Of a stretch of DNA of 64,000 bases, positions 36,567-57,072 are shown piece after piece. The DNA lies in contig CAZNZW010000004.1 in NCBI GenBank assembly GCA_964577615.1, positions 11,511 through 75,510 of the forward strand. The letters are read 5' to 3'. The notes under the pieces are model-generated. The model ran no database searches. It was not told where the DNA came from and was given only the letters and a program-made list of their open reading frames with translations. This stretch comes from an uncultured Desulfobacterales bacterium. GTDB lineage: Bacteria > Desulfobacterota > Desulfobacteria > Desulfobacterales > QNYZ01. The position numbers were made by a program, and so were the translations under genes. Numbering within the stretch: position 1 is the stretch's first letter; the number at the start of each line of letters is the position of its first letter.

Positions 36567-36881
36567 TTAAAAAACCATGTATCGGTCAACCTCGTGGATC
36601 ATTTCCGCGTGCCTCGCCTGGGTGGCAAAATCCTTGAACCCGACGCCCGGCACTTCGTCCTCGCGGCCATGAAAGCCATAGGCCCGGAAGCTGACGTCAC
36701 ACACGGACAGCCTGGCCTTTCCCACCAGCCGTTTGAACGCCGGCTCCAGGGTTAAATAAACGCCTTTCCCGGAAAAAAATATACGCACGTCCTTGCCCTT
36801 TGCGTGGGCCGCTTCAGTCAGATTGACCAGTTCATCGAGATGTTTATTTGAGCTTACCAGAATGCCAAGTGTATCAGCCAT
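36567..36881 (-). CDS. DsrE-like sulfur-relay protein (Cys-containing)
   Basis: 104 aa with GILVSS...GKDVRIFFSGKGV and a conserved-looking Cys in LSVCDVSFRAYG. This is the last gene of the YeeE-TusA operon. Confidence 0.6.
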   Translation of the reverse strand: MADTLGILVSSNKHLDELVNLTEAAHAKGKDVRIFFSGKGVYLTLEPAFKRLVGKARLSVCDVSFRAYGFHGREDEVPGVGFKDFATQARHAEMIHEVDRYMVF

Positions 36882-36960
36882 TTTTATCCCCTTCTTTAAA
36901 ACAGATACCCGCGTGTCATTTTTTAAAATAACAGGTCCGGGTTTTTACGCTCAGCCCCGT

Positions 36961-37134
36961 CTACCACCAGCTGACAACCTTATCATGTGAAAAGATATCG
37001 TCGACCAGTTGAGACCAGTCTACATTGTCTTTGTATAATGCGACCGAAGCGGCTTCTTCACCACTGGATACGGATTCGCTTAACTGCGTAACGACCGCAT
37101 CCGGCTCACTGCGAAATATATTCAGTACCTTCAT
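36961..37134 (-). CDS. 57-aa ORF not in the ORF track; minimal DsrH/TusB-like protein?
   Basis: Manual translation gives MKVLNIFRSEPDAVVTQLSESVSSGEEAASVALYKDNVDWSQLVDDIFSHDKVVSWW. An AGGAGA SD lies 6 nt upstream of the ATG (37134). It fills the gap between two DsrE-like genes on the same strand. Confidence 0.6.
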   Translation of the reverse strand: MKVLNIFRSEPDAVVTQLSESVSSGEEAASVALYKDNVDWSQLVDDIFSHDKVVSWW

Positions 37135-37144
37135 TGTTATTCTC

Positions 37145-37438
37145 CTAAAACGGAATAATCGTATCCGCTGATTTAATCTTTTCGCCGACTTCCGCCATCG
37201 TTACCGGCTGGAATCCATGTTTTTCGACATTGGCCGGGACATTTGAAAAGCGTTCCCCTTCCATTTCGTCCAGAAAGCCCATGTTGTCGCTGTAGGCTTC
37301 ATCCATATTGGCGATCTCATGATCGAGTACGAACATCTGCACTTCGGTCATTTCAAGCAGCAATCCCAGGCTGGTTCGCAGGCCTTCGTATTGCTTTTCG
37401 ACATCCTTGATCAGCACAGCTACCTTTTTCATGGCCAT
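37145..37438 (-). CDS. DsrE/DsrF-like family protein (no Cys)
   Basis: 97 aa with KKVAVLIKD...EGLRTSLGLLLEMTEVQMFVLD. The start abuts the TusA stop. Confidence 0.55.
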   Translation of the reverse strand: MAMKKVAVLIKDVEKQYEGLRTSLGLLLEMTEVQMFVLDHEIANMDEAYSDNMGFLDEMEGERFSNVPANVEKHGFQPVTMAEVGEKIKSADTIIPF

Positions 37439-37684
37439 CTACCCTTTCTGAATAAAGTATCGCGTGTATCCATCCGAGACATCGATCATGCCGAGAAACG
37501 TGTTGCCCCCTTTGTTGCCAAAGTCGGGGATATCGTTTTTTGACCCCGGGTCCGTCCCCTGGATTTCCAGAATCTGTCCTGCGGACAGGCCCTTCAGGGT
37601 TTTTTTGGTTTTCAGCATCGGCATGGGACAGGTCAGTCCCTTGGCATCCAGTACCTGATCCGGTTTAATATCTGCAACATCCAT
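37439..37684 (-). CDS. TusA/YeeD-like sulfurtransferase
   Basis: The start is set at MDVADIKPD (ATG 37684, AAAGGAGA SD). The CPxP active site is in GLTCPMPMLKTKK. Confidence 0.88.
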   Translation of the reverse strand: MDVADIKPDQVLDAKGLTCPMPMLKTKKTLKGLSAGQILEIQGTDPGSKNDIPDFGNKGGNTFLGMIDVSDGYTRYFIQKG

Positions 37685-37709
37685 TTTTTTTCTCCTTTTC
37701 CAATGTGAG

Positions 37710-38906
37710 TTAAAAAATAACAAATTTTTCGGACGATTCGTTCCAGAGGGCCACAAACACCCAGAACAATAAAAAAATCAAAAATACCGGAATGGTCACA
37801 TACCAGGAAATCAGGTCCGGGATAAACACGCCGTTACCCAGTTTGTCAAAGATACCGATCTTTTTGAAAAGCGTCGCGGCAATGGAATTGGTCAGGGCAA
37901 AGGTGACCAGCGTCACCAGCAACTTGGTATGGCCTTCACCCACCCGCCAGAGTGTACTGCTGGCACACCCGCCGGCAAGAAGCATGCCGATACCGAAAAT
38001 CATGCCGCCCAGCAGGCTGCCGACCCAGAAATTATGATAAACGCCGGTCATGGGATCCTGGATAAAGCTCCATTTGATCACCGCCGCGCCCAGTCCGTAC
38101 ACCATCAGGCTCAGGGCCACGGCCTTGACCGTTTCGGCCTCGCCGGTCATCAGCGGGCATCGAAATGCGCGGACAAAACAGAACCGCGCCCGGTGCATGA
38201 CAAATCCGATCAGAAAACCGAAAAACAGCAGACCGCCATTAACAGTGGCCTCCAGGGCCGCGTACAGATAAAAAACCGCCACAACAATCAGCATGAGGGT
38301 CCCACCGGCAACAGGCTGCACACGATTCCAGTCGATCCCTTCGGTTTTCGGCTTTGTCGCCAGGGTAAACCAGCCCTGCGGCAGATGCTCCATTTCCCAG
38401 AGAAGATACCGCAGGCCGAGATAGGCACCGGCGCCCAGGCCAAACATCATGGCGATGCCCCCCAGGTCAAAAACAGCCAACGCAGTATAAAACCCGCCGA
38501 CATTACAGCCAGCGGCCAGAACCGCTCCGGTTCCCATCAGCACGCCGCCGGCAAGGGCTTTGACGTATTCAAACGCCGGCGCCCGCCGTACCTTGAACTG
38601 GCGGCTCATCAAAGCCGAAACAAGGGCACCGACAAACAACCCGAAATTGGACAGCGACATGGGCGACATCCAGGGCGGAAACGGGGGATGGGTCTTGTAA
38701 ATTCCCAGAATATAGAGGATCCAGTTTCCCCAGTTCCGGTACCCGCCGGCAATGCCCCAGGGGCTGCCGCCCCAGAGGTAAATCTGCAGGGCCAGAACAG
38801 CAATAAACAGCCCGGCCAGCCAGACCGGCCAGTCCTTTTCAAACAGAACCGAATACCCTTTCCGGCTTTCCGATTTGATCGTACCGATAAAATTGTCACT
38901 TTCCAC
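37710..38906 (-). CDS. YeeE/YedE-family sulfur-compound (thiosulfate-type) transporter
   Basis: Two sulf_transp halves with the conserved Cys motifs LAAGCNVGG and LLAGGCASS. Paired with a TusA-like gene. Confidence 0.85.
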   Translation of the reverse strand: MESDNFIGTIKSESRKGYSVLFEKDWPVWLAGLFIAVLALQIYLWGGSPWGIAGGYRNWGNWILYILGIYKTHPPFPPWMSPMSLSNFGLFVGALVSALMSRQFKVRRAPAFEYVKALAGGVLMGTGAVLAAGCNVGGFYTALAVFDLGGIAMMFGLGAGAYLGLRYLLWEMEHLPQGWFTLATKPKTEGIDWNRVQPVAGGTLMLIVVAVFYLYAALEATVNGGLLFFGFLIGFVMHRARFCFVRAFRCPLMTGEAETVKAVALSLMVYGLGAAVIKWSFIQDPMTGVYHNFWVGSLLGGMIFGIGMLLAGGCASSTLWRVGEGHTKLLVTLVTFALTNSIAATLFKKIGIFDKLGNGVFIPDLISWYVTIPVFLIFLLFWVFVALWNESSEKFVIF

Positions 38907-39101: not shown

Positions 39102-40919
39102 TTAAAACCGCATTGTTATAGACAGGTAGGCCGTCCAGACATCATCCACCACGGCATTTAAAGCATCAAGACCCGTGGCGTCTTTGATTTTGACCGGTTT
39201 GCCCAGCGGATTACCGCTGCCCGTATACTCGTAATCGTAATACTGCCCGCCAAGCTTGACAAAGAAATGCTGTCCAAAAATCGGCTGGATGTAATACGCT
39301 TCGTAAACGCTGCCCCGAACGGCCAGCTTGCTGCCCACCAGGGAGTCTTCGGCGCCGGTAAAGTTAAACCAGTACTTCGATCCCCAGTTGTATTCAAGAC
39401 CCAGACGCCCGTCTTTCGGCATGGGAAAGAGCACGCCGGCATATACATTGTATCCGTCATGGCTCTTAAGCTCGCCGTTGGAGCTGAGCAGCCCCTGGCC
39501 CATCATTTCATAGAAAGGATTGCGGGAAATTCGATCCGGACTCGTATGGGTCCACGATCCGGCAAAGAAGAAATCGATATCGGCAAACATTTCCGAGAAA
39601 TTGGTCCGTAATAAAAAGGTGGCCGCGTCCCAGTCGCCCAGATTGGTCGAAGGTTCCATGCGGGTGATAAAACCGCCGTTATTAGGTGTGAAGTAGTATT
39701 CGTTTTTCCCGTCTCCATTGGTATCCTGGCGGGAAATGATAAACGGCATGACCGTCAGGCCGGTAAACCCATCGGTAATATCCCAGGCATGGGCATAATT
39801 CAAAACCGCGCTGGTCATATCGTTATCGAACAGGGTGGCAATGAAACCTGCCAGATGGACATCATCCACCTGCGGGCGGGTTTCGTTGAGCGAAAAGGTG
39901 TTGCCCCAGTCGCCTTCAAATCCGACGCCGTAACAGAGTTTAAAAGCCGCTCCCGGGATCCCGGTGGCATCTTCCAGCCCGAAATTCAGGGACGCGCCGT
40001 CAAACTGCCAGTTGATAATCGTTCTCAGTGGAGATCCGCCCTCCAGGCTGTAGTTGCCGTATTCCGCCGGCGGGCCTTCAGTCGCCGGGCGACGCCCCAG
40101 TGAGAAATTGATCGGCACGGGCCCGACCGTCTTTTTATAGTTAAAATAGGCCCGTTCCAGACGGAGAACATCCCCATGAGGCAGGCTGCTCGTGTTCCCG
40201 TCAAACGTGACGTCCCCCAGGCTGCCCTGGTTGAATTTTACGCCGGTACTGTCTCCAAATACTTTATAGGCGGACAGCCGTCCGGCAAAATTCAGGCTCG
40301 AGTTGAATTTTGCCTTCATACCGAGCCGAAACCGGTTCGTAAAAATGACATCATTATCGGCATCATGTTTTTCGGCCGGAGGCACCATGCCGGCATAATT
40401 CATCAAGCCCATCATGCCCTGAATCTGCCCCAGCGTCGCGCCGTTAAAGCCGCCACTCATCTGGCCCATCATCTGCTGTACCTGGGCCGGGCTCATCATC
40501 TGCATGAGTCCCTGAAAATCGGCCGCGCCCATGCCGGCCACCTGGGGATTCACATTGGTGAAAAAGCTGTTGATCATCTGGCCGGGCGCCATCCGGGTAT
40601 CGCTGTAATGCAGAGAATCGGCTTTGGTTCTCAATTCCACACCAAAAGAGACTTTGTCGGTCGCCGTGTGGATTTCGGCCTTATTCAGCCGCTCATCCAT
40701 TTCTTTGATTCGTTTGGTCTTTTTAGCGTCTGTCGTCTGTAGTTTTTCCAGTTTATCCTGCACCTGTTTCACCTGGTCGGATAAAACTTTCAACTGATCC
40801 TTCAGCGCCTGAATATCATCAGACGCCCAAGCACCGGGTGCCGCCATCAACATCAATAGCAAAAAGATTCCACACCGCCCCAATAAGCGCATTCCCCCAT
40901 ACTTGCCGTTTTTCCTCAT
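39102..40919 (-). CDS. Outer-membrane beta-barrel porin with an N-terminal coiled coil (DUF3373-like)
   Basis: The start is set at MRKNGKYGGMRLLGRCGIFLLLMLMAAPGAWA (signal peptide, AGGAGG SD). Coiled coil LKDQLKVLSDQVKQVQDKLEKLQ, alternating beta-strand pattern and a C-terminal Phe (SITMRF). Confidence 0.65.
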   Translation of the reverse strand: MRKNGKYGGMRLLGRCGIFLLLMLMAAPGAWASDDIQALKDQLKVLSDQVKQVQDKLEKLQTTDAKKTKRIKEMDERLNKAEIHTATDKVSFGVELRTKADSLHYSDTRMAPGQMINSFFTNVNPQVAGMGAADFQGLMQMMSPAQVQQMMGQMSGGFNGATLGQIQGMMGLMNYAGMVPPAEKHDADNDVIFTNRFRLGMKAKFNSSLNFAGRLSAYKVFGDSTGVKFNQGSLGDVTFDGNTSSLPHGDVLRLERAYFNYKKTVGPVPINFSLGRRPATEGPPAEYGNYSLEGGSPLRTIINWQFDGASLNFGLEDATGIPGAAFKLCYGVGFEGDWGNTFSLNETRPQVDDVHLAGFIATLFDNDMTSAVLNYAHAWDITDGFTGLTVMPFIISRQDTNGDGKNEYYFTPNNGGFITRMEPSTNLGDWDAATFLLRTNFSEMFADIDFFFAGSWTHTSPDRISRNPFYEMMGQGLLSSNGELKSHDGYNVYAGVLFPMPKDGRLGLEYNWGSKYWFNFTGAEDSLVGSKLAVRGSVYEAYYIQPIFGQHFFVKLGGQYYDYEYTGSGNPLGKPVKIKDATGLDALNAVVDDVWTAYLSITMRF

Positions 40920-41090
40920 CATCTCCTCCTGTAGATATGGATCCAATTAAAAAACCGGGCCGTAGTGCCTACCGCCCACTTCAACAAATACCTGCATTTC
41001 CGGTTTTTCCATATGCGCAGTAAAAAAAATCCAAAAATACCGACCGGACCCAATCACTGGCATGTAAAACCAGACTGTCCCTTATCAAAA

Positions 41091-41180: not shown

Positions 41181-41660
41181 TCACACCATCAATTCCTTAA
41201 CCGCCAGCATCGACGATCGCAACAGGTGCAGATCTTCAAGGACCGTCTTTCTCTGGTCAGATGTGAATTGCCGCAGGGTTTCCCGGTGAACATAATTCAA
41301 AAATTCCCGGATGGTGTCCATCCGTTTTTGCCCTTCGGGGGTTAAACTGAGAAGCGTTATGCGTGAATCTTCCGGATCTTTCACACGTTTAAGAAATTTT
41401 TTTTCAACCAGTCCATCAACAATTTTTGTCACCCGGCTTTTAACGACATTGAGCTTGTAGGCAATTCTTTTACTCGTCAGATACCGACTCTTCCCAAACA
41501 GGAGCAGGCAGCGTATTTCAGCATCGGGCAGCTGAAACTTTTCGCTCTGGTACTGTGCCCGTTCCTGACAGCATCGGAACAGGTCGGATATCAACGATTC
41601 AAACTGCGTCAGCTGATAATCGGGTATGTCCGCCTCATTTGTACGGGAATTATCTTTCAT
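41181..41660 (-). CDS. MarR-family transcriptional regulator
   Basis: The start is set at MKDNSRTNE (ATG 41660). Winged-HTH stretch LTSKRIAYKLNVVKSRVTKIVDGLVEKKFLKRVKDPEDSRITLLSLTPEG. Confidence 0.85.
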   Translation of the reverse strand: MKDNSRTNEADIPDYQLTQFESLISDLFRCCQERAQYQSEKFQLPDAEIRCLLLFGKSRYLTSKRIAYKLNVVKSRVTKIVDGLVEKKFLKRVKDPEDSRITLLSLTPEGQKRMDTIREFLNYVHRETLRQFTSDQRKTVLEDLHLLRSSMLAVKELMV

Positions 41661-41856
41661 AGCGTGAATTATATTGAATTCCGGTGGGATGTCAATACTT
41701 CTTTTCACTCTCCGGACAGGCCGGGGTCGGGATCCACTCAACAGTTGAAGGATTGATAAAAAAGCGGCACAATGGTATGAACAACAATCCATCCCGCATC
41801 AACGCGGCATCCCGCCGAAAGACATTTTGAGTGCCAGCGGGCATGCGGATCTGGTC

Positions 41857-41906: not shown

Positions 41907-43031
41907 ATGGATCGAATATACAAAACGCCGGGCGTGCTTATTATAAAAATAATCGCGGTTTTTCTTATCGGATGCGCACCCATGCCGGCGCACCGGGCCG
42001 CCCCTCCGCCTCAGGCAGAAGCAGCGGGCCAATTTCATACACTGGTGGATGTGGCATTTGTCCGGCCATACATCCGCATGCCCCGCCCCCGGGGAGTCGC
42101 CATTATTGATTCCCGGCCTTATCTGTCCGGGTTTATTGCCGGACACATCCCCACGGCCGTCAGCATCCCCGCCGCACAATTCGATCAGTTTACCCATCGG
42201 CTGCCAGCGGATAAAAACAGTCTGCTGATTTTCTATTGCGATAACACCACCTGCCGGCAAAGTCACGCGTCCGCCAGGAAAGCGGAACAGCTCGGGTACC
42301 ATAATGTCAAGGTTCTGGCCGGCGGATATTCAGCGTATATCCGCTCGCCAGGCGCTTATGCCGGTATTTCCGCGCCGTACCTGATCCAATTGCTCTCATC
42401 CGGTCGCTTAATGCTCGTCGATGCCCGGCCCAGGCGGGCCAAATACGACAAGGGCTATATCCCCACCGCCATCAGCATGCCCGTCACCGAGTTTGATCAG
42501 CTCAAAGGCAAACTGCCGGCCGACAGGACCTTCCCGCTCGTTTTTTATTGTTGCGGATTGACATGAAAGCTGAGTCATCAAGCCGCCCGGCGGGCGGTTG
42601 CAATGGGATATACCAACGTCAAAGTCTTTGAGGCCGGCTATCCCGGCTACCAGAAATACATTGCCGCCCATGGCGATGATGCTGTACTCGAAGCGGGAAA
42701 AGAAGAGGGAGCCGTCGATATCGCGGCCTTTAAAAAGGCCCTGTCAGATCATCCGGCCAGCATGATGATTATCGATGTCCGCGACCCGGACGAATTTGCC
42801 GATGGACATTTCAAGACAGCCGTCAATCTCCCCCTGGGTACTTTTGATGAAAAAATCCCCGCCCTGCCTGCGGATAAACCCATTGTCCTTGTCTGCGCCA
42901 CAGGCGGTCGGGCCGGAGAGGCTTTCTATATGATCCAGGACCTGCGGCCGGCGCTGAAAAATGTCTATTTCCTCGATGCCGAATGCACCTACCACAAAGA
43001 CGGGTCATACCAGTTGAAACCACCCGAGTAG
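41907..43031 (+). CDS. Lipoprotein with three rhodanese domains; predicted selenoprotein (UGA 42564-42566 read as Sec)
   Basis: ORFs 41907..42566 and 42603..43031 share a frame and are separated by a single TGA. Lipobox AVFLIGC. The TGA aligns to Cys of FYCDNTTCRQSH in domain 1 (domain 2 reads FYCCGLT-TGA-KLSH). The third domain has CATGGRAGE. Confidence 0.7.
42576..42605 (+). other. Candidate bacterial SECIS hairpin
   Basis: Core stem CCGCC (42583-42587) / GGCGG (42593-42597), loop CGGCG, extended by AAC/GTT and CAT/ATG pairs with bulges. The apical loop lies about 24 nt after the U of UGA. Confidence 0.45.
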
Positions 43032-43059: not shown

Positions 43060-43701
43060 TTACCGGCCGTCACCAGTCGCTTGAATGCTCAACCGGATCG
43101 CCTGACCGGGCCGCCCGGCTTCCAGCAGCGCCGCGAGGGTCACTTTCTTACCGTCCAGCATCAGCGAACTTTCCGATCCGGTCAAAACCGGCGCGGCAAG
43201 ATTTAGAAATACCCGCACGGCCGAGACGTCCACATCGACCCCTTTTTCCAGAAAAGCCGGCCCGAGTTCCCGGGCCACAACGTTAAAAAGCCGGATCGTC
43301 ACCGTTCCCAGTGTGGATTCGGCTGGTGAATCGCCGCTTCCGGTACCCGTTGCCTGACAGGAAATACGTTGTCTCAGCTTGGCATAAAAGCCGCCCTTGC
43401 GCATGGTGGCCCCCACCAGGCCGGGCATGGCGGCGGACAGGGCCACAATGTCACCATCAGAAACCACCGTTTTTTCAACATCATCCACCGGGCTGCTGTT
43501 TAAAAACAAGGTCTGTACCCGGTTTTTCAGATAATCCGCATCGATCCCGAGTTGACCGCACAACAGACGGGAAAGAGATCCACCCACCCGGGCCTGTACT
43601 GAAAATCCTTTGGACAGCAGCGCCTGCAGTCCGGGCAAAACTGTTTCCCGCGAGCGGATGTAAATTCCAGATTCTTTTGTATCCATGTTTGATAAAGTCA
43701 T
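43060..43701 (-). CDS. Hypothetical protein (213 aa), last gene of the corrinoid/MtmB-like operon
   Basis: AAGGAGG SD upstream of ATG 43701. I recognise no motif. Confidence 0.55.
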   Translation of the reverse strand: MTLSNMDTKESGIYIRSRETVLPGLQALLSKGFSVQARVGGSLSRLLCGQLGIDADYLKNRVQTLFLNSSPVDDVEKTVVSDGDIVALSAAMPGLVGATMRKGGFYAKLRQRISCQATGTGSGDSPAESTLGTVTIRLFNVVARELGPAFLEKGVDVDVSAVRVFLNLAAPVLTGSESSLMLDGKKVTLAALLEAGRPGQAIRLSIQATGDGR

Positions 43702-43744
43702 GCAGCCTCCTTATGCCAGGAACATTGAAAATGCCGATTGTCGA

Positions 43745-44236
43745 TCACAAATCGTACAGGGTATCATCCCGCCGGGGGGGAAGTCTGCGCCGGGCCGTCT
43801 TACTTTTCCGATCCGGCAGCAGAAACGGATCTTCCGTTTCAAGCAGATCCCCCATCTGCGCTTCGATTTCATCCGGATCCTGACCGTCTTTCATCCGTTG
43901 AAGCGCTTCCTGCATCCCCGGGCCCAGTTCCATGCCGGTGATATCGGTCAGTTTTTCCATCAGTTTTGCGGCCTGGCGGGGATCGTCTTCGTTGATCTGT
44001 CCCGCCTCGGTGGCCAGCATCTGCATGGCTTTTTCCATCTTGCGCTCGTCAATGGGAAAATCGTCCACGGCATCTTCTTCCTGTTTACGGCCGCCGATGG
44101 CAAAAAGGGAGATTTCACGTGTCAGGGACCGGGTTTTACATTGGGGGCACTTGGGGCGTTTGGTCGTGTTGATGGTCTTTGAGAAAAAATTGAATATCGT
44201 ATGGCATGCATCACAATAAAATTCGTAAATCGGCAT
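43745..44236 (-). CDS. FmdB-family zinc-ribbon protein with an acidic tail
   Basis: MPIYEFYCDACHTIF...CPQCK (CxxC...CxxC), typical of the FmdB-type putative regulatory family. Confidence 0.8.
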   Translation of the reverse strand: MPIYEFYCDACHTIFNFFSKTINTTKRPKCPQCKTRSLTREISLFAIGGRKQEEDAVDDFPIDERKMEKAMQMLATEAGQINEDDPRQAAKLMEKLTDITGMELGPGMQEALQRMKDGQDPDEIEAQMGDLLETEDPFLLPDRKSKTARRRLPPRRDDTLYDL

Positions 44237-44376: not shown

Positions 44377-45759
44377 CTAAAAAGGAAACACCACGCCCAT
44401 TGCGGCAATGTCGTCTTTCACCTTTCGATACATGTCATAATGCTCCTGGCTGGGAAGCGCTTTGGCAACATCATAGCATTCAGGGTATTCCTTGCCCATG
44501 GACGCGGTCGCCGCCTGATCTTCGTATTTGGCCAGCAGTTTCAGGGCAATCTCATTGGCTGCCTCGCGGGTCATCCCCATCTGGGCCACGGCATGGCCGA
44601 CCTCGACCCCCAGGCGGGCTTCCATGGGCGTGGCACGGTTCCGGTATTTATTGCGGGTGGAGGCCATCTCCCATAAATGCCAGCCACTGACCGTACTGAC
44701 CAGGGCATGGCAGGCCGTTTCATAAAAAAGCATCTCGGTCATGGGGCCGGCATTGGCAAAACCGTTACTGGTGTACAGCAGCTTGCTGTTACGCGCCATG
44801 GCCTGACCGGCCATGGCAATGGGCCACAGCAATTCCCGGGTGGTATTGGATCCATAATTGAGATGAAAGGGAAAATGCTGATTGAACATGGCCCCGTGAA
44901 TCAGAAGCCCCTTGAGACTGTAAGCCACCAGAGTAACGGCCACGCCTTCGGAGCCGCCGCACCAGCCGCCGTAAATGGGGCCGGTCAGATTGCCGGTGTA
45001 ACAGCCATATTGGGCATAATGAACCGAGCGGTTGAGAAGGGTGTCGGCGGTTTTAAATTCGGTTAACGATCCCACCAGGCGGGCGTCGGTGGTGCGGACG
45101 CCCCATTCGTCGTTGGAAACTGCAATCTGGCCGGCATCATGCTCGGCCGTCCCCACAGCCACAAAAAAGGTGCCCGGGCGACCCAGTTGCCGGGCAGCGG
45201 CCCGCATATTGTAAATATGCTGGATGCAGCCGTTGATTTCAGTCGGCCCGCCCGACTCGATCAACTGCCCGATGGCATCTTCCAGAATCGGGGCGCAGAA
45301 GCCGTCGAGCAACGGCTCTTTCAGGTAGGCGGCGCACATGGAATGATGCAGATGTTCGTCAACGGTAATGTCCGGGCTGTAAATACAGAAAGGCGGCTCG
45401 GTATCCTCCACCTGCCGATGTTTCCACAGCCTGGCATCTTTGCCTTCACCCACCCAGTACCGGTCTTTGGCAACATACAGCGCCTCTTTGATCTCCGCGT
45501 CGGTCACCTGAATGATGCGGTGAGAATCGATATTATAGACGCCGACTTCCCGGAAAAGGTCCCAGCCCGCCTGCCAGATGCGATCCGCCATGGCATCGTC
45601 GGCGGGCAGCGGCGTTTCCGGATCGTATTTTATCTCGTATTTTTTGATAATTTTCTTGAGCGTCGGGGTAAACAATCTGGGCAGAAAATCGTCTTCGTCA
45701 ATGTGGGGGCCGGTCTTGGACCGGTCCATCATTTCCCAGATGCGATAGGCTGTGGTCAT
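44377..45759 (-). CDS. MtmB-family (monomethylamine methyltransferase-like) protein without pyrrolysine
   Basis: 460 aa, collinear (from memory of archaeal MtmB) with GRPG..., GSNTTRE, AGPMTEM, TPMEARLGVEV and the C-terminal GKEYPECYDV...MGVVFPF. There is no in-frame TAG. Confidence 0.75.
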   Translation of the reverse strand: MTTAYRIWEMMDRSKTGPHIDEDDFLPRLFTPTLKKIIKKYEIKYDPETPLPADDAMADRIWQAGWDLFREVGVYNIDSHRIIQVTDAEIKEALYVAKDRYWVGEGKDARLWKHRQVEDTEPPFCIYSPDITVDEHLHHSMCAAYLKEPLLDGFCAPILEDAIGQLIESGGPTEINGCIQHIYNMRAAARQLGRPGTFFVAVGTAEHDAGQIAVSNDEWGVRTTDARLVGSLTEFKTADTLLNRSVHYAQYGCYTGNLTGPIYGGWCGGSEGVAVTLVAYSLKGLLIHGAMFNQHFPFHLNYGSNTTRELLWPIAMAGQAMARNSKLLYTSNGFANAGPMTEMLFYETACHALVSTVSGWHLWEMASTRNKYRNRATPMEARLGVEVGHAVAQMGMTREAANEIALKLLAKYEDQAATASMGKEYPECYDVAKALPSQEHYDMYRKVKDDIAAMGVVFPF

Positions 45760-45877
45760 GGTGATTCCTCCCGTCGGTTATCAGTCTCCCGCATACAGAC
45801 CATCCTCAGGTCATCTTTGAATAAATCAATACCTGAATACCGTCATTGAAATTTGGCTGGTTCCGTTATCCCCAGTT

Positions 45878-46516
45878 CTATTTATCCAACAGGTCCGCCA
45901 TTTTGGTCGCCGCGCAATTGGCATCTTCGCAATAAAGATCGGCCCCGATCATATCCGCCCACATCTGGGAAGTCGGCGCCCCCCCGATGACGACCTTGTA
46001 CTTGTCCCTCAGGCCCTTATCCTTTAAAAACTCGATAATCTCTTTCTGGCGCGGTATCGTGGTGGTCATCAAGGACGATGCGCCGATAAAATCCGCCCCC
46101 ATCTCCTCGGCCGCCTTGATAAAATCCAGGGAGTCCACATCGTAGCCGAGATCTTTGACCTCGAATCCATTGGTTTCCAGCATCAGCTTGACAATATTTT
46201 TTCCGATTTCATGCAGATCGCCCTTTACCACACCGATAACCACCTTGCCCCTGGAAAAATCCCCTTTCGTGTCTTTCAGCTCGGGCTTGACGATATCCAC
46301 CACAGCGGTCAGGGCTTCCCCGGCCATCATGACTTCGGGCAAAAAAATTTCCAGGTCGGCAAACAGGTTGCCCACCCGCTCCATGGTTTTGGTCAGGCTG
46401 TCCAGGATTTCCAGCGGATCGGCCCCCTGGTCCAGAAGCGCCCGGGCGGCGGATTCACTGGCTTCTGTTTCACCGGTTTCAACCAGTTTATTCAATTCTT
46501 CCAATGACATGGACAT
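45878..46516 (-). CDS. Cobalamin-binding corrinoid protein (MtmC/MttC/MtgC-like)
   Basis: N-terminal B12 cap helix bundle plus a Rossmann domain with DxHxxG (GDLHEIGKNIV) and SSLMTTT. Confidence 0.9.
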   Translation of the reverse strand: MSMSLEELNKLVETGETEASESAARALLDQGADPLEILDSLTKTMERVGNLFADLEIFLPEVMMAGEALTAVVDIVKPELKDTKGDFSRGKVVIGVVKGDLHEIGKNIVKLMLETNGFEVKDLGYDVDSLDFIKAAEEMGADFIGASSLMTTTIPRQKEIIEFLKDKGLRDKYKVVIGGAPTSQMWADMIGADLYCEDANCAATKMADLLDK

Positions 46517-46616
46517 CCTCCTTGAAAAAAAGGCAACAATGCGTCATCTTATCGATTCCTGACGCGGCCATCCCGGCCACGATTCATGATCATTTTTAAT
46601 ATATTAATAATATTTT

Positions 46617-46647
46617 TGTCAATCCATTACTGATATTTATATTGACA
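46617..46647. promoter_or_regulatory. Candidate GntR operator TGTCAAT-N17-ATTGACA
   Basis: Perfect 7-bp arms (46617-46623 / 46641-46647) in the AT-rich divergent region between the corrinoid gene and gntR. Confidence 0.4.
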
Positions 46648-46678
46648 TTTTAGATGGATCGGTTAATAGGTTAAACCC

Positions 46679-47311
46679 ATGAATAAAGAAGAGGCCTACG
46701 AAAATCTGCGCATGCGCATTATTACCAATGATGTCGCGCCCGGAGAAATCCTCAACGAGAAGGATCTCATGGCCCGGCTCGGTATCGGCCGGTCCCCGTT
46801 GCGGGAAGTCCTTTTCCGGCTGCAGGAGGAGAACCTGATCAATCCCCTGCCCCGGCTGGGCTATATGGTGACTCCCCTGGATATCTCGGATGTGCGCGAA
46901 CTGGTGGAGCTGCGCCGGGAGCTGGAGGGGTTTGCCGGATATCTGGCGGCCCAGCGCATCACCGACAGTCAACTCGAAGACCTGCGCGCCCTCATCCACC
47001 AGGCCGAAACAGACGCTCCTCAAAAGCATGAATTCACCAGCATTTCGGAATATTACGACACCCGGTTTCATGATCTGCTTTACCAGGCCGCCCACAACCG
47101 GAAACTGGCTAAAACCTTACGGGGGCTGCATATCGACATGCTCCGGATCTGGTTTCATGTGGGACTCGATGCCATTGGATTTTCACCCGAGGTTCAAAAT
47201 TTTCACACTGTTCTGGCCGCCCTGGAACAAAAAGATGCCGAAAAGACCCGAAAGGCCATGGAAGCCCACGTGGATTTTTACGCGGCCCAGGTCAAGGATA
47301 AATTTCTATAA
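46679..47311 (+). CDS. GntR-family regulator (FadR/FCD type)
   Basis: NEKDLMARLGIGRSPLREVLFRLQEENLI wHTH plus an all-helical FCD-like C-terminal domain. Confidence 0.88.
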   Translation: MNKEEAYENLRMRIITNDVAPGEILNEKDLMARLGIGRSPLREVLFRLQEENLINPLPRLGYMVTPLDISDVRELVELRRELEGFAGYLAAQRITDSQLEDLRALIHQAETDAPQKHEFTSISEYYDTRFHDLLYQAAHNRKLAKTLRGLHIDMLRIWFHVGLDAIGFSPEVQNFHTVLAALEQKDAEKTRKAMEAHVDFYAAQVKDKFL

Positions 47312-47323
47312 GAGGAACGTTTC

Positions 47324-48796
47324 ATGAGTGATGAACCGGCGTCCCGCTGTATCCCCCACCACTACCGCCTGCTGACTGACGCGCAGATCAAACGCCTTCA
47401 TACCGCCACACTTGACATCCTGGAAACGGTCGGGGTCCGGGTTGAACATGATCAGGCCCGCCGGATGCTGGCCGATGCCGGGTGCCGGATCGCTGAAAAC
47501 GGAAATGTCCGTATCCCCGGCCAGATGGTGGAAGATGCCATTGACAGTGCGCCTTCACAGATAACCGTATACAACCGCCTGGGAGAAAAAGCCCTTCAGC
47601 TGGAAGGCCACCGCATCCACTTTGGCATGGGCACCGATCTTGCCAAAACCTATGACCTTGACACCGGCGAACTGCGGGCATCCTTGCTGAAAGATGTCCA
47701 AACAGCCGTCCACATTGCCGATGCCCTGCCGGAAATTGATTTTATCGCTTCATACGCCATTCCCACGGATTCGCCCTCCAACATGATATACGTGGATGCA
47801 TTTAAGGCGCAGCTGGAAAATTCCACCAAGCCCATATTTTTCACAGCCGCCGGACGGGAAGATATCGAGATCATCCGGGACATGGCGGCCGCGGCCGCTG
47901 GCGGGAAAAAAAATGTCCGCGACAAACCGTTCTGGATCCATTACGCGGAACCGCTCAGCCCGCTGATTCACACGACCGGGGCGATAGACAAGCTGTTTTT
48001 TTGCGCGGACAACCATATTCCGATCACTTACACACCGGGCATGATGTCCGGCGCCACGGCCCCGGTAACGCTGGCCGGTGCCCTGGCCCAGGGAAATGCC
48101 GAGGCATTGAGCGGACTGGTAATGCATCAGCTCCGCTGTCCGGGCGCGCCGATTATTTCGGGCATCGGCATGTCGACCATGGATATGGCCCGGGCCACCT
48201 GCATCTATGGATGTCCCGAATACCGTCTGGCCCTGTCGGCCTGTGCCGATCTGTACCACCATTACCAGCTCCCCATGTGGGGAACCGCCGGTGTCACCGA
48301 TGCCAACTGCCTTGACCAGCAGGCCGGGATGGAGTGGGGAATTTCCCTGATGCTGAACGCCATGTCCGGTGCCAACCTGATTCACGATGTCGGCTATATG
48401 GGTCAGGGGCTGATCGGCCACCCGGCCGCCCTGGTTATCTGTGATGAAATCATCAGCTATGTGAGACGATTTATGCGTGGATTTGACCTGGACGATGTCC
48501 ACCTGGATCTGGACTCGATCCGCCAGGTGGGCGCGGGGGGCAGTTTTTTATCCACCGATCAGACGGCGATGCGGTTCAGATCGGAGCATTGGTATCCCAC
48601 CCTCTCCAATCGAAAACCGGTGGGACTCTGGGAAAAAGAAGGGACCCGAGGCATGATTGACCTTGCGGTGGAAAAAGCCAGGGATATCCTGCGGAACCAT
48701 TCCCCGGCCCCCTTGACCGAATCCGTTCAGCAGGAGCTGCATGAGATTCGGTCTCAGGCAGAACACAGCCTCCGCAATATTCGTTTTGAAACCTGA
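47324..48796 (+). CDS. MttB-superfamily methyltransferase without pyrrolysine (quaternary-amine:corrinoid type)
   Basis: LTDAQIKRLHTATLDILETVGVRV N-terminus. The region aligning to the archaeal Pyl site reads WGTAGVTDANCLDQQAG, with no TAG. Confidence 0.82.
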   Translation: MSDEPASRCIPHHYRLLTDAQIKRLHTATLDILETVGVRVEHDQARRMLADAGCRIAENGNVRIPGQMVEDAIDSAPSQITVYNRLGEKALQLEGHRIHFGMGTDLAKTYDLDTGELRASLLKDVQTAVHIADALPEIDFIASYAIPTDSPSNMIYVDAFKAQLENSTKPIFFTAAGREDIEIIRDMAAAAAGGKKNVRDKPFWIHYAEPLSPLIHTTGAIDKLFFCADNHIPITYTPGMMSGATAPVTLAGALAQGNAEALSGLVMHQLRCPGAPIISGIGMSTMDMARATCIYGCPEYRLALSACADLYHHYQLPMWGTAGVTDANCLDQQAGMEWGISLMLNAMSGANLIHDVGYMGQGLIGHPAALVICDEIISYVRRFMRGFDLDDVHLDLDSIRQVGAGGSFLSTDQTAMRFRSEHWYPTLSNRKPVGLWEKEGTRGMIDLAVEKARDILRNHSPAPLTESVQQELHEIRSQAEHSLRNIRFET

Positions 48797-48840: not shown

Positions 48841-49722
48841 TCAATCGTTGCGCGCCATATAGGTCTCCAGCCACTGGACGCCGAAGGAAAGCGTCAGGCA
48901 CATGACAAGATACATGGCGGTAATGGTGAGCCACACCTCGATGGTGACATGGGTGGCGGCCATCACCTGCATCCCCTGAAAAGTAAGTTCCTGGATCGAA
49001 ATAATCGACACAATGGCCGAGTATTTGATGGTATTGATGAACTCATTGGCCAATGGCGGCAGCACCCGTTTGAGCGCCTGGGGCATAACGATGTCCCGCA
49101 TCTGCTGCCGCCAGGACATCCCCAGGGCATAGGACGCTTCCCATTGACCTTTTTCAATGGATTGAATCCCGGCACGCACAATTTCGGTGATATAAGCGCC
49201 TTGAAAGACGGCCACTGTAACGACACCGGAAATAAAAGCCGTAAACAGATCCGGCGTCGAGAACAACCAAGCGAGGATTTTCTGGGTGCCGGGATCCCGG
49301 CTCCGGATAAACGATTCGACCCCCAGAATGGGCATGATTTGAGAGCTGACAAAAAAATAAAAGATAAAAATCAGCACCAGCGGGGGAACATTGCGGATCA
49401 ATTCCACATAAGTGCGGCCCACCAGGCGGTTGAACAGGCGGGGCGTTGTTCGCAATACGCCGGCCACCAGTCCGAAAACCGTGGCCAGCAAGGTGGCCCA
49501 CACGCTCAAACGGATGGTGGTAAACAGCCCCTGCAGCAGGACATTGGCTTTCCAGCGACCTTCGGCTTCATCAAAAAACCAGAGGTATTGGGGAATAATG
49601 GACCAGTTCCACTTGTAGTTGAGTTTGACGGCCAGCCGATAGACAATGAAAGCCGCCAGCGCCAATAGCAGTGCGGTCACAACCACATCCAGTCGGGTTA
49701 TACGTGTTTTGCGATGGTGCAA
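48841..49722 (-). CDS. ABC transporter permease (polar amino acid type)
   Basis: EAA-loop-containing HisM/GlnP-like permease with a long N-terminal extension, paralogous to 51578..52402. Confidence 0.85.
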   Translation of the reverse strand: MHHRKTRITRLDVVVTALLLALAAFIVYRLAVKLNYKWNWSIIPQYLWFFDEAEGRWKANVLLQGLFTTIRLSVWATLLATVFGLVAGVLRTTPRLFNRLVGRTYVELIRNVPPLVLIFIFYFFVSSQIMPILGVESFIRSRDPGTQKILAWLFSTPDLFTAFISGVVTVAVFQGAYITEIVRAGIQSIEKGQWEASYALGMSWRQQMRDIVMPQALKRVLPPLANEFINTIKYSAIVSIISIQELTFQGMQVMAATHVTIEVWLTITAMYLVMCLTLSFGVQWLETYMARND

Positions 49723-49823
49723 AAAAGCCCTCTGCGCTATACCTGTTTATCCAGTTCAGCCAATCTGTCCACCAGGCCCGTCTCTACCCCTGGAAGGGGC
49801 AGAGTCCGGCCCGATAGGATCCA

Positions 49824-50654
49824 TTATTCGACCAGGCTGGCCCAGTCCCTTGTTCCAAACCAATAGTAATGCCTGTCCTGGAGCCATCCCTGGTCATTTT
49901 TTGTCTGGATCCAGCTGTTAAAAAAAACCAGGGTATCAAAATCACCTTTTCGCAGGGCAAAACCGATGGGTTCCTTGGTGAAATTATCCCGCATGGGCAT
50001 AAACAGGGTGTCCGCGTACTTGACGGCTTCATACGCGGGCCGGGGGGCAGATCCGACCACGGCATGCACATTGCCGTTACGCAGTTCCTGATAAGCCTGG
50101 GCCTCATCTTCAAAAAGCCGCAATTTGGCTTTGGGCATATATTTTTTGGCCGCCATTACGGCGGTGGTGCCCAGCTTGACCGCCAGTTGAACATCCGGTT
50201 TGTTGAAATCATCCAGCGACTTAAATCCGGCTGCTTTTTTCCTGTGCGCCACCATGGACATCCCCGAGTAATCATAGGGAATGGTAAAATTCACCTTCAG
50301 AGCCCGTTTGGTCTGAATCCCCATGCCGCCGATAATCACATCAAATTTGCCGGTCAGCAGCGCCGGAATAATTCCGGCCCACTTGGTGGGAATAAATTCG
50401 ACTTTTACGCCCATGTCTTCGGCCAGTTGACGGGCCACATCAATTTCAAACCCGACAAACTCGCCGGTTTTGCTTTTCATGGCCCAGGGCACGAATGTAT
50501 CCATCCCCACCCGTATAACGCCCCGTTTCAGGATCTGTTCCAACGTGCTTTCTTTGGACAGCTTCATCTGCAGCTCACCGGCCGTGACACTGGCAGATAA
50601 ACAAAAACCCAGCGTCAAAATCAATGCGATGATTACCGTTGCGTTTCGTTTCAT
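49824..50654 (-). CDS. ABC transporter periplasmic substrate-binding protein (family 3)
   Basis: Signal peptide, then GVIRVGMDTFVPWAMKSKTGEFVGFEIDVARQLAEDMGVKVEFIPTKW. Confidence 0.88.
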   Translation of the reverse strand: MKRNATVIIALILTLGFCLSASVTAGELQMKLSKESTLEQILKRGVIRVGMDTFVPWAMKSKTGEFVGFEIDVARQLAEDMGVKVEFIPTKWAGIIPALLTGKFDVIIGGMGIQTKRALKVNFTIPYDYSGMSMVAHRKKAAGFKSLDDFNKPDVQLAVKLGTTAVMAAKKYMPKAKLRLFEDEAQAYQELRNGNVHAVVGSAPRPAYEAVKYADTLFMPMRDNFTKEPIGFALRKGDFDTLVFFNSWIQTKNDQGWLQDRHYYWFGTRDWASLVE

Positions 50655-50795
50655 TGTTTTTCCTCCTTTAAATAGATATTTCCGGTTAAAATAAAGATCT
50701 TACGATCACGGCGGTTCCTGTTTAACATGATAAAGGCAACTCCGGGGCCCCGAACCAACATCCGGAGACCCGTCCCAAAACCGGATATCCGGTAT

Positions 50796-51548
50796 TTATA
50801 AAATCTGGCTTAAAAACAGCCGGGTACGATCTTCGGTCGGCGCAGTAAAAAAATGTTCCACGGTACCGGCCTCTATGATTTTGCCATCTTCCATGAAAAT
50901 AACCCGGTCACTCACCTCACGGGCAAACCCCATCTCGTGCGTCACGCAGATCATGGTCATCCCCTCACGGGCCAGTGCTTTCATCACATCCAGCACTTCA
51001 CCGATCATTTCAGGGTCAAGCGCACTGGTCGCCTCATCAAAAAGCATCACCTTGGGCATCATGGCCAGGGCGCGGGCAATGGCCACCCGCTGCTGCTGAC
51101 CGCCGGAGAGCTGGTTGGGGTAGTTATCGGCCTTATCGGCAATACCGACTTTTTCCAAAAGGTCCATGGACATGGCCCGGGCCTGCTCCTTTGTTTTTTT
51201 ACGGACGCGCCGCTGGGCCAGGCTGATATTTTCCAATACCGTCATGTGGGGAAACAGGTTGAACTGCTGAAAGACCATCCCCACCTCTTTCCGGATTTCA
51301 AGCCTGTTCTTTTTATGGTCATCCAGAACAATACCGTCAATGGTAATGGCACCGCTGTCGATCTCCTCCAGGCCATTCAGGCAGCGCAGAAATGTTGATT
51401 TTCCCGAGCCGGACGGGCCGATGACGACCACCACTTCACCGCGATGGATCCGGGTGGAAAAATCGACGAGCGCCTTGACACCGTTGGGAAACGTTTTGCT
51501 GATATGTTCAACAACGATGATATAATCTCCCGAATCCGTAACGGGCAT
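50796..51548 (-). CDS. ABC transporter ATP-binding protein
   Basis: Walker [10 protein letters not shown], signature LSGGQQQRV, Walker [13 protein letters not shown]. Confidence 0.93.
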
Positions 51549-51577
51549 GTAAAATCTCCAATTTCTCTGTTTCCGGA

Positions 51578-52402
51578 TCAGCCAACCACTTTGAAACGGT
51601 GTTCCATGTAATTGACGATGACAGACAATGTCGCCGTGACAACCAGATACATCCCCGCCACGGTAAACCAGAGTTCAAAGGTTAAAAAGGTTTCCGCAAT
51701 CACGGCCTGGGCCTGCATGGTTAAATCGTAGATGGCAATGGTGCTGACCAGCGCGGAGTCCTTGATGAGCGAGATGGCCTGGCTGGTCAGGGGCGGCAAT
51801 ACCCGTCGAATCGCCTGGGGTAAAATAATATAAAAATAGGTGTCAAATCCGCTCAACCCCAGGCTATGAGCCGCCTCCCACTGCCCCCGGCGGATAGAAA
51901 CAATCCCTGCCCGGAATATTTCGGAAGTATAAGCGCCTTCAAACAGGCTCAGGGCAAGAACGGCCGATGTCATCCGGTTGATGCCCAGCACCGGCCCCAG
52001 AACAAAATAGATAAAAAACAGTTGGATCAAAAGCGGGGTGTTGCGAACCACCTCAAGATAAACCCGGGCAATGGCTTGAGCGACAAACGAATGTGACAGC
52101 CGAAAAAGAGCGGTACCCAGGCCGATAATAAATGCCAGTACCAGGCTGATTCCCGAAATTCGCAAGGTCACCATTAACCCCTCCCACAAAGGACCGGCAT
52201 AGTAGCCGGTTTCATCGTGGGTGAAGATATATTTGGGAATCTGGTACCATTGCCAGTTATAGCCCAATTTTTCAGTACCGGCGGAGAAAAACCAGACGAC
52301 AGCAAGCACCAGGAGGGTGAACTGGGCAACATCGAAAAGAGGTGACCGGTAAATGCGGCGCCAGAGCGGTTTACGCTGTGATGGATGAGATGCGCCCATC
52401 AA
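51578..52402 (-). CDS. ABC transporter permease (polar amino acid type)
   Basis: Paralogue of 48841..49722 ([14 protein letters not shown]... versus NYKWNWSIIPQYLW...). Confidence 0.85.
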
Positions 52403-52626
52403 TTACCTGTTTTTAAAAAGAATTGCAGATCCGCAATATAAATGTGCATCAGGAGTTTCTGTAATTTTGGCATGTTTTTGTATATCAAATCAATCCATCT
52501 CTGTCTATAATCGAATCGGTGGCCATGCGGGAAACCGGCCCGCCGGGTATGCCCAACACGGATGGTTTCTCCTCGCAATTTCGCCTGTATCATGATATTC
52601 TTAACTGATTCACGGGAGTCATGATC

Positions 52627-53115
52627 ATGAAAGTCGTATTCATTGAGCAAGACCGCTGCCTGGCGTGCCGCAATTGCGAACGTGCCTGTTCATTCCACGA
52701 TTCCAGAAATTTCAAGCGCGAATCAGCCAATATCTGGGTCCATATCGATATGGATATTCGCTCCATTTTCACCCTGACCTGCCAGCAGTGTGAAACGCCC
52801 GCCTGTCTCAATGTCTGCCCGACCGGAGCGATCAAACGTGACCCGGAAACCCGGGCCGTGATCGTTGACGAAGAAACCTGCGTCGGCTGCCGGATGTGCG
52901 TCAATGCCTGTCCTTTCGGCTGTGTCCATTTTGATGAAGCCGGGCATATTGCCGCCAAGTGCGACCTGTGCGGCGGAACGCCCAAATGTGTCCAGAACTG
53001 CATGTCCGGTGCCCTGCATTACGCTGACATCAACGATCTGGCCGTTATCAAGCGCCGCAAAACAGACAAAATCCGGGCCAACGCCGCCCTGTCTCATAAA
53101 ACGAAAGTCCGGTGA
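52627..53115 (+). CDS. 4Fe-4S dicluster electron-transfer subunit
   Basis: CLACRNCERAC, CQQCETPACLNVCP, CVGCRMCVNACP, CDLCGG...C. The start is more likely the second ATG (52627), 8 nt after GGGAG. Confidence 0.85.
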   Translation: MKVVFIEQDRCLACRNCERACSFHDSRNFKRESANIWVHIDMDIRSIFTLTCQQCETPACLNVCPTGAIKRDPETRAVIVDEETCVGCRMCVNACPFGCVHFDEAGHIAAKCDLCGGTPKCVQNCMSGALHYADINDLAVIKRRKTDKIRANAALSHKTKVR

Positions 53116-56987: not shown

Positions 56988-57072
56988 ATTCCCATCGGAG
57001 GCTGAAATGAATTAACGATCCATGAATACGCTATCTATCCAATTAATGAGGAACGCCGCTGATCTCAACTAT

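Follow-up and report, generated by a model that had tools for sequence, protein, structure and literature searches.

A predicted selenocysteine beside the catalytic cysteine of an exported triple-rhodanese lipoprotein in sulfate-reducing Desulfobacterales

Rhodanese-Domain Selenoproteins and Related Sulfurtransferases

Rhodanese-domain selenoproteins are an established group, five forms of which, with the motifs UxxS, UxxG (twice), CxU, and UxxxxU (TsoB), are listed in a 2026 catalogue (PMC13188914). Earlier surveys of Deltaproteobacteria counted several "rhodanese-related sulfurtransferase" selenoproteins, which may already include the form described here. Here we describe a gene on the forward strand of a 64,000-nucleotide stretch of DNA (hereafter the window) from an uncultured Desulfobacterales bacterium (GenBank assembly GCA_964577615.1, contig CAZNZW010000004.1, positions 11,511 to 75,510), in which an in-frame UGA very probably encodes selenocysteine (Sec) in the second of three rhodanese domains of an exported lipoprotein. 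A first-pass annotation of this DNA had stated that rhodanese-related selenoproteins were predicted in metagenome surveys, which the five catalogued forms bear out.

Among the catalogued selenoproteins, the closest relative of the window protein appears, by sequence comparison, to be the rhodanese domain of TsoB. TsoB (NF045694) is the best partial match in NCBIfam to domains 1 and 2, with 94.8-120 bits against a cutoff of 805 (window protein, E = 3e-27; orthologue with two Sec codons, E = 6e-35), the match being limited to the rhodanese part (profile positions 59-151 of 572), and its Sec residues have the same x4 spacing ("form 5," UxxxxU). However, TsoB carries Sec at both loop positions and is a rhodanese/DsbD fusion-like protein of ~572 aa from a three-selenoprotein operon, whereas in the window protein the first loop position stays Cys, three rhodanese domains stand in tandem, and a lipobox is present. 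The model rhodanese_LYCAU (NF041203; "form 3," CxU), in which the catalytic Cys is likewise kept and Sec lies within the loop, gave 75-86 bits against a cutoff of 115. It describes a single domain (126-aa model) with Sec at +2 instead of +5, and the window loop reads F-Y-C-C-G-L-T-U, not L-Y-C-A-U. LYCAU and the forms with Sec at the catalytic site (UxxS, UxxG) are also bioinformatic predictions, many of them in Deltaproteobacteria. The U-K-L-S of the window protein formally fits the UxxS of "form 1" (WP_010941598.1), a comparison made by motif only. No NCBIfam model reaches its cutoff for either the window protein or a double-Sec orthologue. The 2026 catalogue has no exported lipoprotein with C-x4-U in tandem domains, and CxxxxU was not found in the literature searched. 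Judging from the survey counts and from the fit of U-K-L-S to UxxS, we regard the protein as a variant of the rhodanese selenoproteins and not as a new class. The "new context" announced by the first-pass annotation thus refers to the form and the architecture and, with five rhodanese selenoprotein forms already catalogued, not to a new class.

A resemblance of another kind is found in ExtH-ExtI-ExtKL of Geobacter sulfurreducens, which likewise brings together a lipid-anchored rhodanese, an outer-membrane pore, periplasmic multiheme cytochrome(s), and selenium-dependent sulfur chemistry (PMC6148476, PMC5877670, PMC13510729). ExtKL (MccSep) was recently characterised as a multiheme selenium-dependent polysulfide reductase (PMC13510729). 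In Geobacter Sec resides in the cytochrome, while here it would reside in the rhodanese, and the cytochrome encoded beside relatives of the window gene is octaheme (TIGR04315) and not pentaheme as in ExtKL. ExtH itself is not meaningfully similar in sequence: its model (NF040901) does not match the window protein and gives a double-Sec orthologue 18 bits against a cutoff of 200. YnjE of Escherichia coli is periplasmic, has three rhodanese domains, and is among the Foldseek matches, but its identity is ~14% and its whole-chain TM score is low. Sud of Wolinella is a periplasmic polysulfide-sulfur transferase that acts as the sulfur carrier for the respiratory reductase Psr. Both Sud and YnjE are Cys-only proteins with one active loop each. 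The C-x4-C loop itself has a column-for-column counterpart in BH2092 (PDB 3NHV/3O3W; YCWGPACNG), whose single-domain fold matches with a root-mean-square deviation of 2.2 Å; this is a structural-genomics protein of Bacillus halodurans deposited just as "BH2092 protein," and we know of no Sec form of it.

A Single Gene with an In-Frame UGA

Translation of 41907-43031 yields 374 sense codons in a single frame, with TGA 42564-42566 as the sole internal stop and TAG 43029-43031 as the terminal stop. The public gene calls of all sources instead give two open reading frames (ORFs) of 219 aa (P0001) and 142 aa. The first-pass annotation had proposed that these two ORFs (41907-42566 and 42603-43031), which share a frame and are separated by the TGA and 12 sense codons, form one fused protein of 374 aa, and our translation agrees with it. 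Assemblies from four further sample records (ENA, Logan, two JGI metagenomes; L084-L088) contain the identical gene with its TGA, which is therefore not an assembly error. As TGA is also the ordinary terminator of 12 of the 40 Pfam-supported genes in the window, the organism uses the standard code and not code 4/25.

The N-terminus reads MDRIYKTPGVLIIKIIAVFLIG-C23, of which residues 17-23 (AVFLIGC) agree with the lipobox pattern [LVI]-x-[GAS]-C. From this signal peptide and lipobox, the product is predicted to be exported and lipid-anchored. Export signals are found in all family members, 54 of 84 loci having an xxGC lipobox and most of the others a type I-like signal peptide. Pfam Rhodanese (PF00581) matches in three stretches (E = 2.9e-44; 150 bits against a gathering cutoff of 22.2), so that the lipobox and the three rhodanese domains noted at first pass are both borne out. 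In the AlphaFold2 model of an orthologue (P0002; pLDDT 88.8) three rhodanese domains are seen, and a Foldseek search against the PDB returned only generic multi-rhodanese matches, whose whole-chain TM scores are low.

The alignment of domains 1 and 2 has no gaps, and in both of them the site in question lies five residues past the Cys that ends an F-Y-C strand. The TGA therefore stands opposite Cys116, the second Cys of the C-x4-C motif of domain 1, as had been read at first pass. In sequence alignment, the loop Cys of human TSTD1 (6bev) falls on C215, with which the motif begins; we take this residue to be the catalytic Cys of domain 2. Sec would accordingly close the six-residue active-site loop at position +5 (C-x4-U), while the nucleophilic, catalytic Cys beside it is kept. 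In classical rhodaneses, Thr, Ser, or Arg is found at this last loop position, with the side chain directed to the persulfide.

We consider it scarcely credible that the TGA is a true stop between two functional genes, one encoding a 219-aa product and the other a 142-aa product from ATG 42603, even though this ATG exists 12 codons past the TGA and Pfam Rhodanese is assigned to both pieces in precomputed annotations. As the first-pass annotation had argued, the break falls in the active-site loop of domain 2 and would make the second product begin mid-domain. The first product would lack the helix and strand needed to complete its fold. While ATG 41907 is preceded by AAGGA, a Shine-Dalgarno-like sequence, the bases before ATG 42603 lie in the 3' arm of the hairpin described below and contain no clear ribosome-binding site. 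Furthermore, more than 100 homologues are single polypeptides, and the 12 intervening codons, KLSHQAARRAVA, rank among the most conserved of the triple-rhodanese family.

Cysteine or TGA in the Homologues

A protein search with the fused sequence returned more than 1,000 relatives, of which the best 120 were examined. Nearly all of these are single polypeptides of 357-408 aa with ~50% identity, mostly from metagenome-assembled genomes of Desulfobacterales, and none of the 120 has an annotated Sec at the column. Of 119 homologues aligned with MAFFT, 116 have Cys at the position of the TGA, and the other three read "W." The DNA of these three (P0007, P0025, and P0028, from L001-L003) has TGA at both paralogous columns, from which it follows that the gene caller applied a code with TGA as a sense codon. 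These W calls would favor reading the UGA as a standard amino acid, whether by Trp/Gly reassignment (code 4/25) or by near-cognate read-through. We attach next to no probability to such a reading: TGA terminates genes in the window as described above, the aligned residue is Cys and never Trp or Gly, the internal TGAs of the three W genes are confined to the two C-x4-C columns, and a reassigned codon would need no conserved hairpin.

One genome per GTDB species was scanned, and the 80 loci returned make up, together with the window, a set of 81 species-level loci. The states at the two columns (domain 1/domain 2) are Cys/Cys in 54, Sec/Sec in 21, Sec/Cys in four, and Cys/Sec in two, the latter being the window and L008; TGA thus occurs in domain 1, domain 2, or both at 27 of the 81 loci, and at the domain-1 column of Cys116 it is frequent in orthologues. 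When metagenome contigs were included (~110 loci), the codons at 209 sites of the two columns were TGC (108), TGT (13), and TGA (88), with no TAA, TAG, frameshift, or any further codon among them. The column proposed at first pass is therefore occupied by Cys codons or in-frame TGA and by no other stop, a pattern that argues against decay, in the course of which other stops or frameshifts should arise. Besides the window, orthologues with TGA were found at 26 GTDB species loci and on more than 20 metagenome contigs. One double-TGA orthologue (L013) belongs to the Olavius Delta 1 symbiont, for which a very large selenoproteome is documented. No relatives of intermediate distance (70-95% identity) came up in the metagenome scan.

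The coding sequence downstream of the UGA is intact. The 154 codons past it stay open, and all 27 columns that are invariant in the family alignment past residue 220 are kept in the window protein, including L222, S223, H224, and C330, T332, and G333 of the domain-3 loop. Among near-identical environmental copies, the downstream variants are synonymous only (codon 232 GCA>GCG, codon 330 TGC>TGT).

These data make it very unlikely that the gene is a pseudogene truncated by a nonsense mutation, with the TGA a real stop and the downstream ORF a decaying remnant. Such a reading could draw on the two ORFs of the public gene calls, on the divergent, long-branch position of the window protein, and on the fact that the Sec machinery of the source genome is judged from relatives only. 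Against it stand the recurrence of the same TGA in the four other sample records, the restriction of 88 TGA sites to exactly two columns that never hold TAA, TAG, or a frameshift, the open codons and invariant residues (the domain-3 active site included) with their synonymous variation, and a synonymous codon choice that maintains the hairpin.

A SECIS-Type Hairpin Downstream of the UGA

The first-pass annotation had noted a bulged hairpin at 42576..42605 with a G-rich loop about 24 nt past the UGA, where a bacterial selenocysteine insertion sequence (SECIS) would be sought. The minimum-free-energy fold recovers it with a core at 42581/2-42598/9, a UGA-to-loop distance of 22 nt, and a free energy of -13.0 kcal/mol, and the bulged version corresponds to a weak outer stem at ~42575-42606. 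The bacterial SECIS (bSECIS) model calls for a loop of 3-9 nt, a stem of 4-16 bp, G in the first two loop positions, a distance of 16-37 nt from the UGA, and a minimum free energy of at most -7.5 kcal/mol (PMC13188914). The window hairpin lies within each of these constraints as quoted there.

Comparison among the loci is more telling. In the first set of loci, CCGCC-NGGNN-GGCGG or a variant of it begins exactly 16 nt past all 54 TGA sites. A stem in this fixed register is 4-8 bp long (mean 6.1) at 54 of 54 TGA sites, while the median at 113 TGC/TGT sites is 0 (Mann-Whitney p ~7e-25, a value that overstates independence because the sites are phylogenetically related). Among the hairpin variants, double changes preserve the pairing (CUGCC/GGCAG, CAGCC/GGCUG, and CCGCU/AGCGG). 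In the alignment of the 54 sequences, 52 of them distinct, both partners have changed in four of the seven pairs, the variation at pairs 21-33 and 24-30 is solely compensatory, and just one cell of the core pairs is unpaired. The observed covariation score was reached by none of 500 shuffles, slid registers were 32-51% paired vs. 86%, and RNAalifold, unaided, returned the same 5-bp core helix. As a control, the identical peptide KSARKAE is encoded with 5/5 core pairs at 16 distinct Sec sites and with 3-4/5 at eight distinct Cys sites, and the encoded protein thus does not account for the stem. The hairpin is accordingly conserved, and co-varies only where TGA occurs.

A covariance model built from the TGA sites found its second-best match in the window (34.4 bits, two non-canonical pairs) past the domain-1 TGC, as a degenerate hairpin, UCCGC-CAGGAAA-GCGGA. 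The TGC together with this degraded copy suggests that domain 1 underwent a past Sec-to-Cys replacement of which the hairpin would be a relic SECIS. At some Cys sites the hairpin is intact or nearly so (e.g., domain 1 of L052), and in a neighbor-joining tree Sec forms appear beside Cys forms in at least three places.

Gene Neighborhood

The rhodanese gene is divergent from a MarR-DUF3373-YeeE-TusA-(two small ORFs)-DsrE gene set (Table 1), and both Pfam and the gene calls agree with the MarR, porin, YeeE, TusA, and DsrE-like neighbors named at first pass. The DUF3373 family is listed among outer-membrane pore-forming proteins (PMC4827864). The genes at 36567-38906 match the composition of the "YTD" or DsrEFH type II sulfur-relay cluster, a cytoplasmic sulfur relay the substrate specificity of which is thought to depend on uptake (PMC13490349, PMC13293266). 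On the other side, a convergent gene encodes a 213-aa protein without any Pfam or NCBIfam match; in L004, the closest orthologous (Sec-form) locus, a homologue with 62% identity is found at the corresponding place, and the protein may be functionally linked to the rhodanese gene.

Table 1. Features of the triple-rhodanese locus and its neighborhood (positions in the window)
Feature	Position	Strand	Basis
DsrE-like	36567-36881	-	Pfam
Two small ORFs	36961-37134, 37145-37432	-	Gene calls
TusA	37439-37756 (also given as 37439-37684)	-	Pfam
YeeE/YedE (Sulf_transp)	37710-38906	-	Pfam
DUF3373, putative outer-membrane pore	39102-40946	-	Pfam, E 1e-120
MarR regulator, divergent from rhodanese gene; public calls (L084) start at 41660	41181-41792	-	Pfam
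Complete triple-rhodanese lipoprotein gene, 374 aa, predicted UGA read-through	41907..43031	+	Single frame, Pfam, full-length homologues of 370-385 aa
Signal peptide with lipobox L-I-G-C, Cys23 codon 41973-41975	41907..41975	+	Read from sequence
Rhodanese domain 1, loop C111-D-N-T-T-C116, C116 = TGC 42252-42254	42096..42341	+	Pfam best stretch, residues 64-145
Degenerate hairpin past domain-1 TGC	42270..42286	+	Covariance model from TGA sites
Rhodanese domain 2, loop C215-C-G-L-T-U220, Cys215 codon 42549-42551	42384..42656	+	Alignment to TSTD1
Predicted selenocysteine codon, in-frame UGA, residue 220	42564..42566	+	Cys/TGA-only column
Bacterial SECIS-type hairpin, stem 7-8 bp, loop GGC 42589-42591	42581..42599	+	Fold, model, conservation
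Rhodanese domain 3, classical single-Cys loop C330-A-T-G-G-R, codon 42894-42896	42714..43016	+	Pfam
Conserved hypothetical, 213 aa, convergent with rhodanese gene	43060-43701	-	Homologue in L004

ORFs within 7 kb of the rhodanese gene were clustered across 84 loci. The genes found most often are a co-directional downstream one for a ~547-aa cytochrome with eight CxxCH motifs (64 loci), a co-directional upstream one for a conserved, secreted protein of ~116 aa without a family match (53 loci), a divergent one for a sigma-54-type regulator (53 loci), and a co-directional one for a ~217-aa membrane protein past the cytochrome gene (41 loci). In NCBIfam, the cytochrome belongs to TIGR04315, the octaheme cytochromes c of the tetrathionate reductase family (506 bits, cutoff 375), and the membrane protein is a PhsC-like cytochrome b that scores below its NCBIfam cutoff; L015 (10001-14000), L014, and L054 are examples of loci with both. 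Another subset of loci has a PhsA-like molybdoenzyme (560 bits, below the cutoff of 694) with an Fe-S subunit and, by eye only, a TorD-like chaperone. DUF3373 and/or YTD genes are found at about a dozen of the 84 loci. The YeeE/porin neighborhood stressed by the first-pass annotation is thus present at this locus but is a minority context in the family, in which the octaheme cytochrome with cytochrome b is the commonest. In L011 and L015, DUF3373 and the rhodanese gene run in the same direction. L015 joins the YTD and octaheme-cytochrome contexts, since its order, DUF3373-YTD-small ORF-rhodanese-octaheme cytochrome-cytochrome b, is co-directional throughout. The TIGR04315 octaheme family is itself catalogued as a GenBank-annotated selenoprotein; no in-frame TGA was found in the neighboring octaheme cytochromes of 76 loci.

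Proposed Role of the Triple-Rhodanese Protein

Judging from the gene neighborhoods and the export signals, we propose that the protein is a periplasmic sulfane-sulfur carrier. The hairpin would act as a bacterial SECIS bound by SelB, leading to recoding of the UGA as Sec, and the product would be exported via the general secretory (Sec) pathway, lipid-anchored, and periplasmic. Cys215 would then take sulfane sulfur from thiosulfate, tetrathionate, or polysulfide to form a persulfide or thiosulfonate, and the neighboring selenolate of Sec220 would accept or resolve the persulfide via an S-Se intermediate, a step that would speed the hand-over of sulfur to a partner, either a reductase or YeeE. 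At the window locus, the DUF3373 pore and a YeeE-TusA-DsrEFH import relay would be the partner; in most relatives, it would be the octaheme tetrathionate-reductase-family cytochrome or the PhsA-like molybdoenzyme. A relay of this kind would parallel Sud-Psr of Wolinella and ExtH-ExtI-ExtKL/MccSep of Geobacter.

Alternatively, the selenoprotein could serve in the handling of selenium or tellurium oxyanions, binding selenite-derived selenium as a selenotrisulfide or supplying selenium to YedE-type transport. The neighboring YeeE matches best the YedE/FdhT selenium-metabolism model (116 bits, below cutoff), and ExtH and the porin ExtI of Geobacter are implicated in selenite and tellurite reduction (PMC5877670). 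However, the neighbors at this locus match the YTD/DsrEFH type II composition, which is tied to sulfur transfer, the dominant neighbors in relatives are tetrathionate- and thiosulfate-reductase-family enzymes, and the similarity to ExtH is negligible (18 bits). We therefore regard this alternative as unlikely and prefer a role in sulfur transfer.

Several points weigh against our interpretation. The mechanism is an extrapolation from rhodanese chemistry and gene neighborhoods. The window protein is a divergent, long-branch member with loops (CDNTTC and CCGLTU) that depart from the consensus CGGxxC/U, and the usual cytochrome neighbors are missing at its locus; the long branch and the atypical loops slightly lower our confidence that it behaves as the family norm. 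The single-sequence fold is not significant (z = -0.86 vs. shuffles, 62-nt segment): the hairpin alone is unremarkable in G+C-rich sequence, and the SECIS case accordingly rests on comparison. Rfam searches of the whole window (gathering thresholds) and of 42500-42700 (E <= 10) found no SECIS family and returned chance snoRNA matches only. None of selA, selB, selD, or tRNA-Sec was found within the 64-kb window (which holds no tRNAs; Pfam on 40 ORFs), and of all TGA-joined ORF pairs in the window none but the rhodanese gene makes a credible TGA-interrupted gene. No tRNA-Sec was found in 30 related loci either, and the source organism is presumed to decode Sec on the evidence of its relatives.

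Even so, we hold it very probable that UGA 42564-42566 is decoded as Sec, a prediction that draws on the Cys/Sec pairing at the column, the conservation of the putative SECIS, the intact downstream coding, and, for its cellular setting, the predicted export signal. The account as a whole, in which one gene, its UGA recoded as Sec through the hairpin, encodes a periplasmic triple-rhodanese lipoprotein engaged in sulfur hand-over, seems to us likely. The sulfur-relay role taken by itself is a tentative assignment, for which we infer the chemistry, the substrates, and the partners. More speculatively, the proteins might constitute a previously undescribed periplasmic selenoprotein family, with tandem C-x4-U rhodanese domains and up to two Sec per chain. 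In Desulfobacterota, this family would supply the missing extracytoplasmic component for sulfur capture and hand-over to octaheme cytochromes of the tetrathionate reductase family, PhsA-like reductases, and the YeeE-TusA-DsrEFH type II import relay, with a fast S-Se exchange step at the selenolate; we rate this broader idea as possible yet doubtful.

Other Features of the Window

One further pair of TGA-joined ORFs (55362-57011, - strand), an 80-codon ORF followed by TGA 56745-56747 and a class III aminotransferase, was considered and rejected as a selenoprotein gene. We judge these to be adjacent ORFs because the aminotransferase starts at its own ATG right past the TGA and no family is recognized in the upstream part.

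Next to the gene of the 213-aa protein, a 165-aa ORF at 43685-44182 (+) is a shadow of the real gene at 43745-44236 (-), which encodes a 163-aa FmdB-type zinc-ribbon protein (Zn_ribbon_8, precomputed annotation). A methylamine-type methyltransferase cluster follows at 44377-48796. Its MtmB-family protein (44377-45759, 460 aa) is uninterrupted and thus has no pyrrolysine (Pyl) codon, and the MttB-family protein (47324-48796) is uninterrupted as well; between them lie a B12-binding corrinoid protein (45878-46516) and a GntR/FCD regulator (46679-47311). A non-Pyl MtmB homologue is unusual, and the cluster looks like a non-Pyl quaternary-amine demethylation locus. It is followed by an ATP-binding cassette transporter with a family-3 solute-binding protein (48841-52402).

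A 4Fe-4S protein and a 689-aa molybdopterin oxidoreductase, with no twin-arginine signal evident by eye, are encoded at 52621-55181. Near the end of the window are an NrfD-type membrane subunit (61319-62647) and an ORF (63567-63947) whose translation, by eye, resembles the C-terminal region of a molybdopterin subunit that continues beyond the window; this system (61319-63947) could be a Psr/Phs/Ttr-like reductase. Near the other end, two adjacent acyl/acetyl-CoA synthetase-like paralogues of 693 and 677 aa (4059-8198, - strand; Pfam on the first only) are encoded, together with a sodium:solute symporter (9523-11280) and a cNMP/CBS/DUF294 nucleotidyltransferase-type regulator (11322-13826).

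Significance for Sulfate-Reducing Desulfobacterales

Another rhodanese selenoprotein in Desulfobacterota will not surprise the specialist. What deserves attention is the predicted position of Sec, the tandem architecture with two Sec codons, the periplasmic location, the links to Ttr/Phs-family enzymes and to YTD genes, and the scale of the misannotation. At least 27 of the 81 species-level loci of the family carry one or two predicted Sec codons, and the selenoprotein form would thus be widespread in sulfate-reducing Desulfobacterales. Because public gene calls either fragment the Sec forms or read the UGA as Trp, a common selenoprotein of marine and sediment sulfate reducers would be largely invisible in protein databases. 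The many independent Sec/Cys switches and the relic hairpins offer material for the study of SECIS gain and loss inside coding sequence.

The predicted Sec position is unusual. With Sec ending the loop and the catalytic Cys left in place next to it, an S-Se relay or a redox pair is indicated and not a simple Cys-to-Sec swap of the nucleophile. The uptake of sulfur substrates by systems of the YTD/DsrEFH type is described as unresolved (PMC13293266, PMC13490349). The triple-rhodanese protein would be a testable candidate for a periplasmic step in the metabolism of sulfur intermediates.

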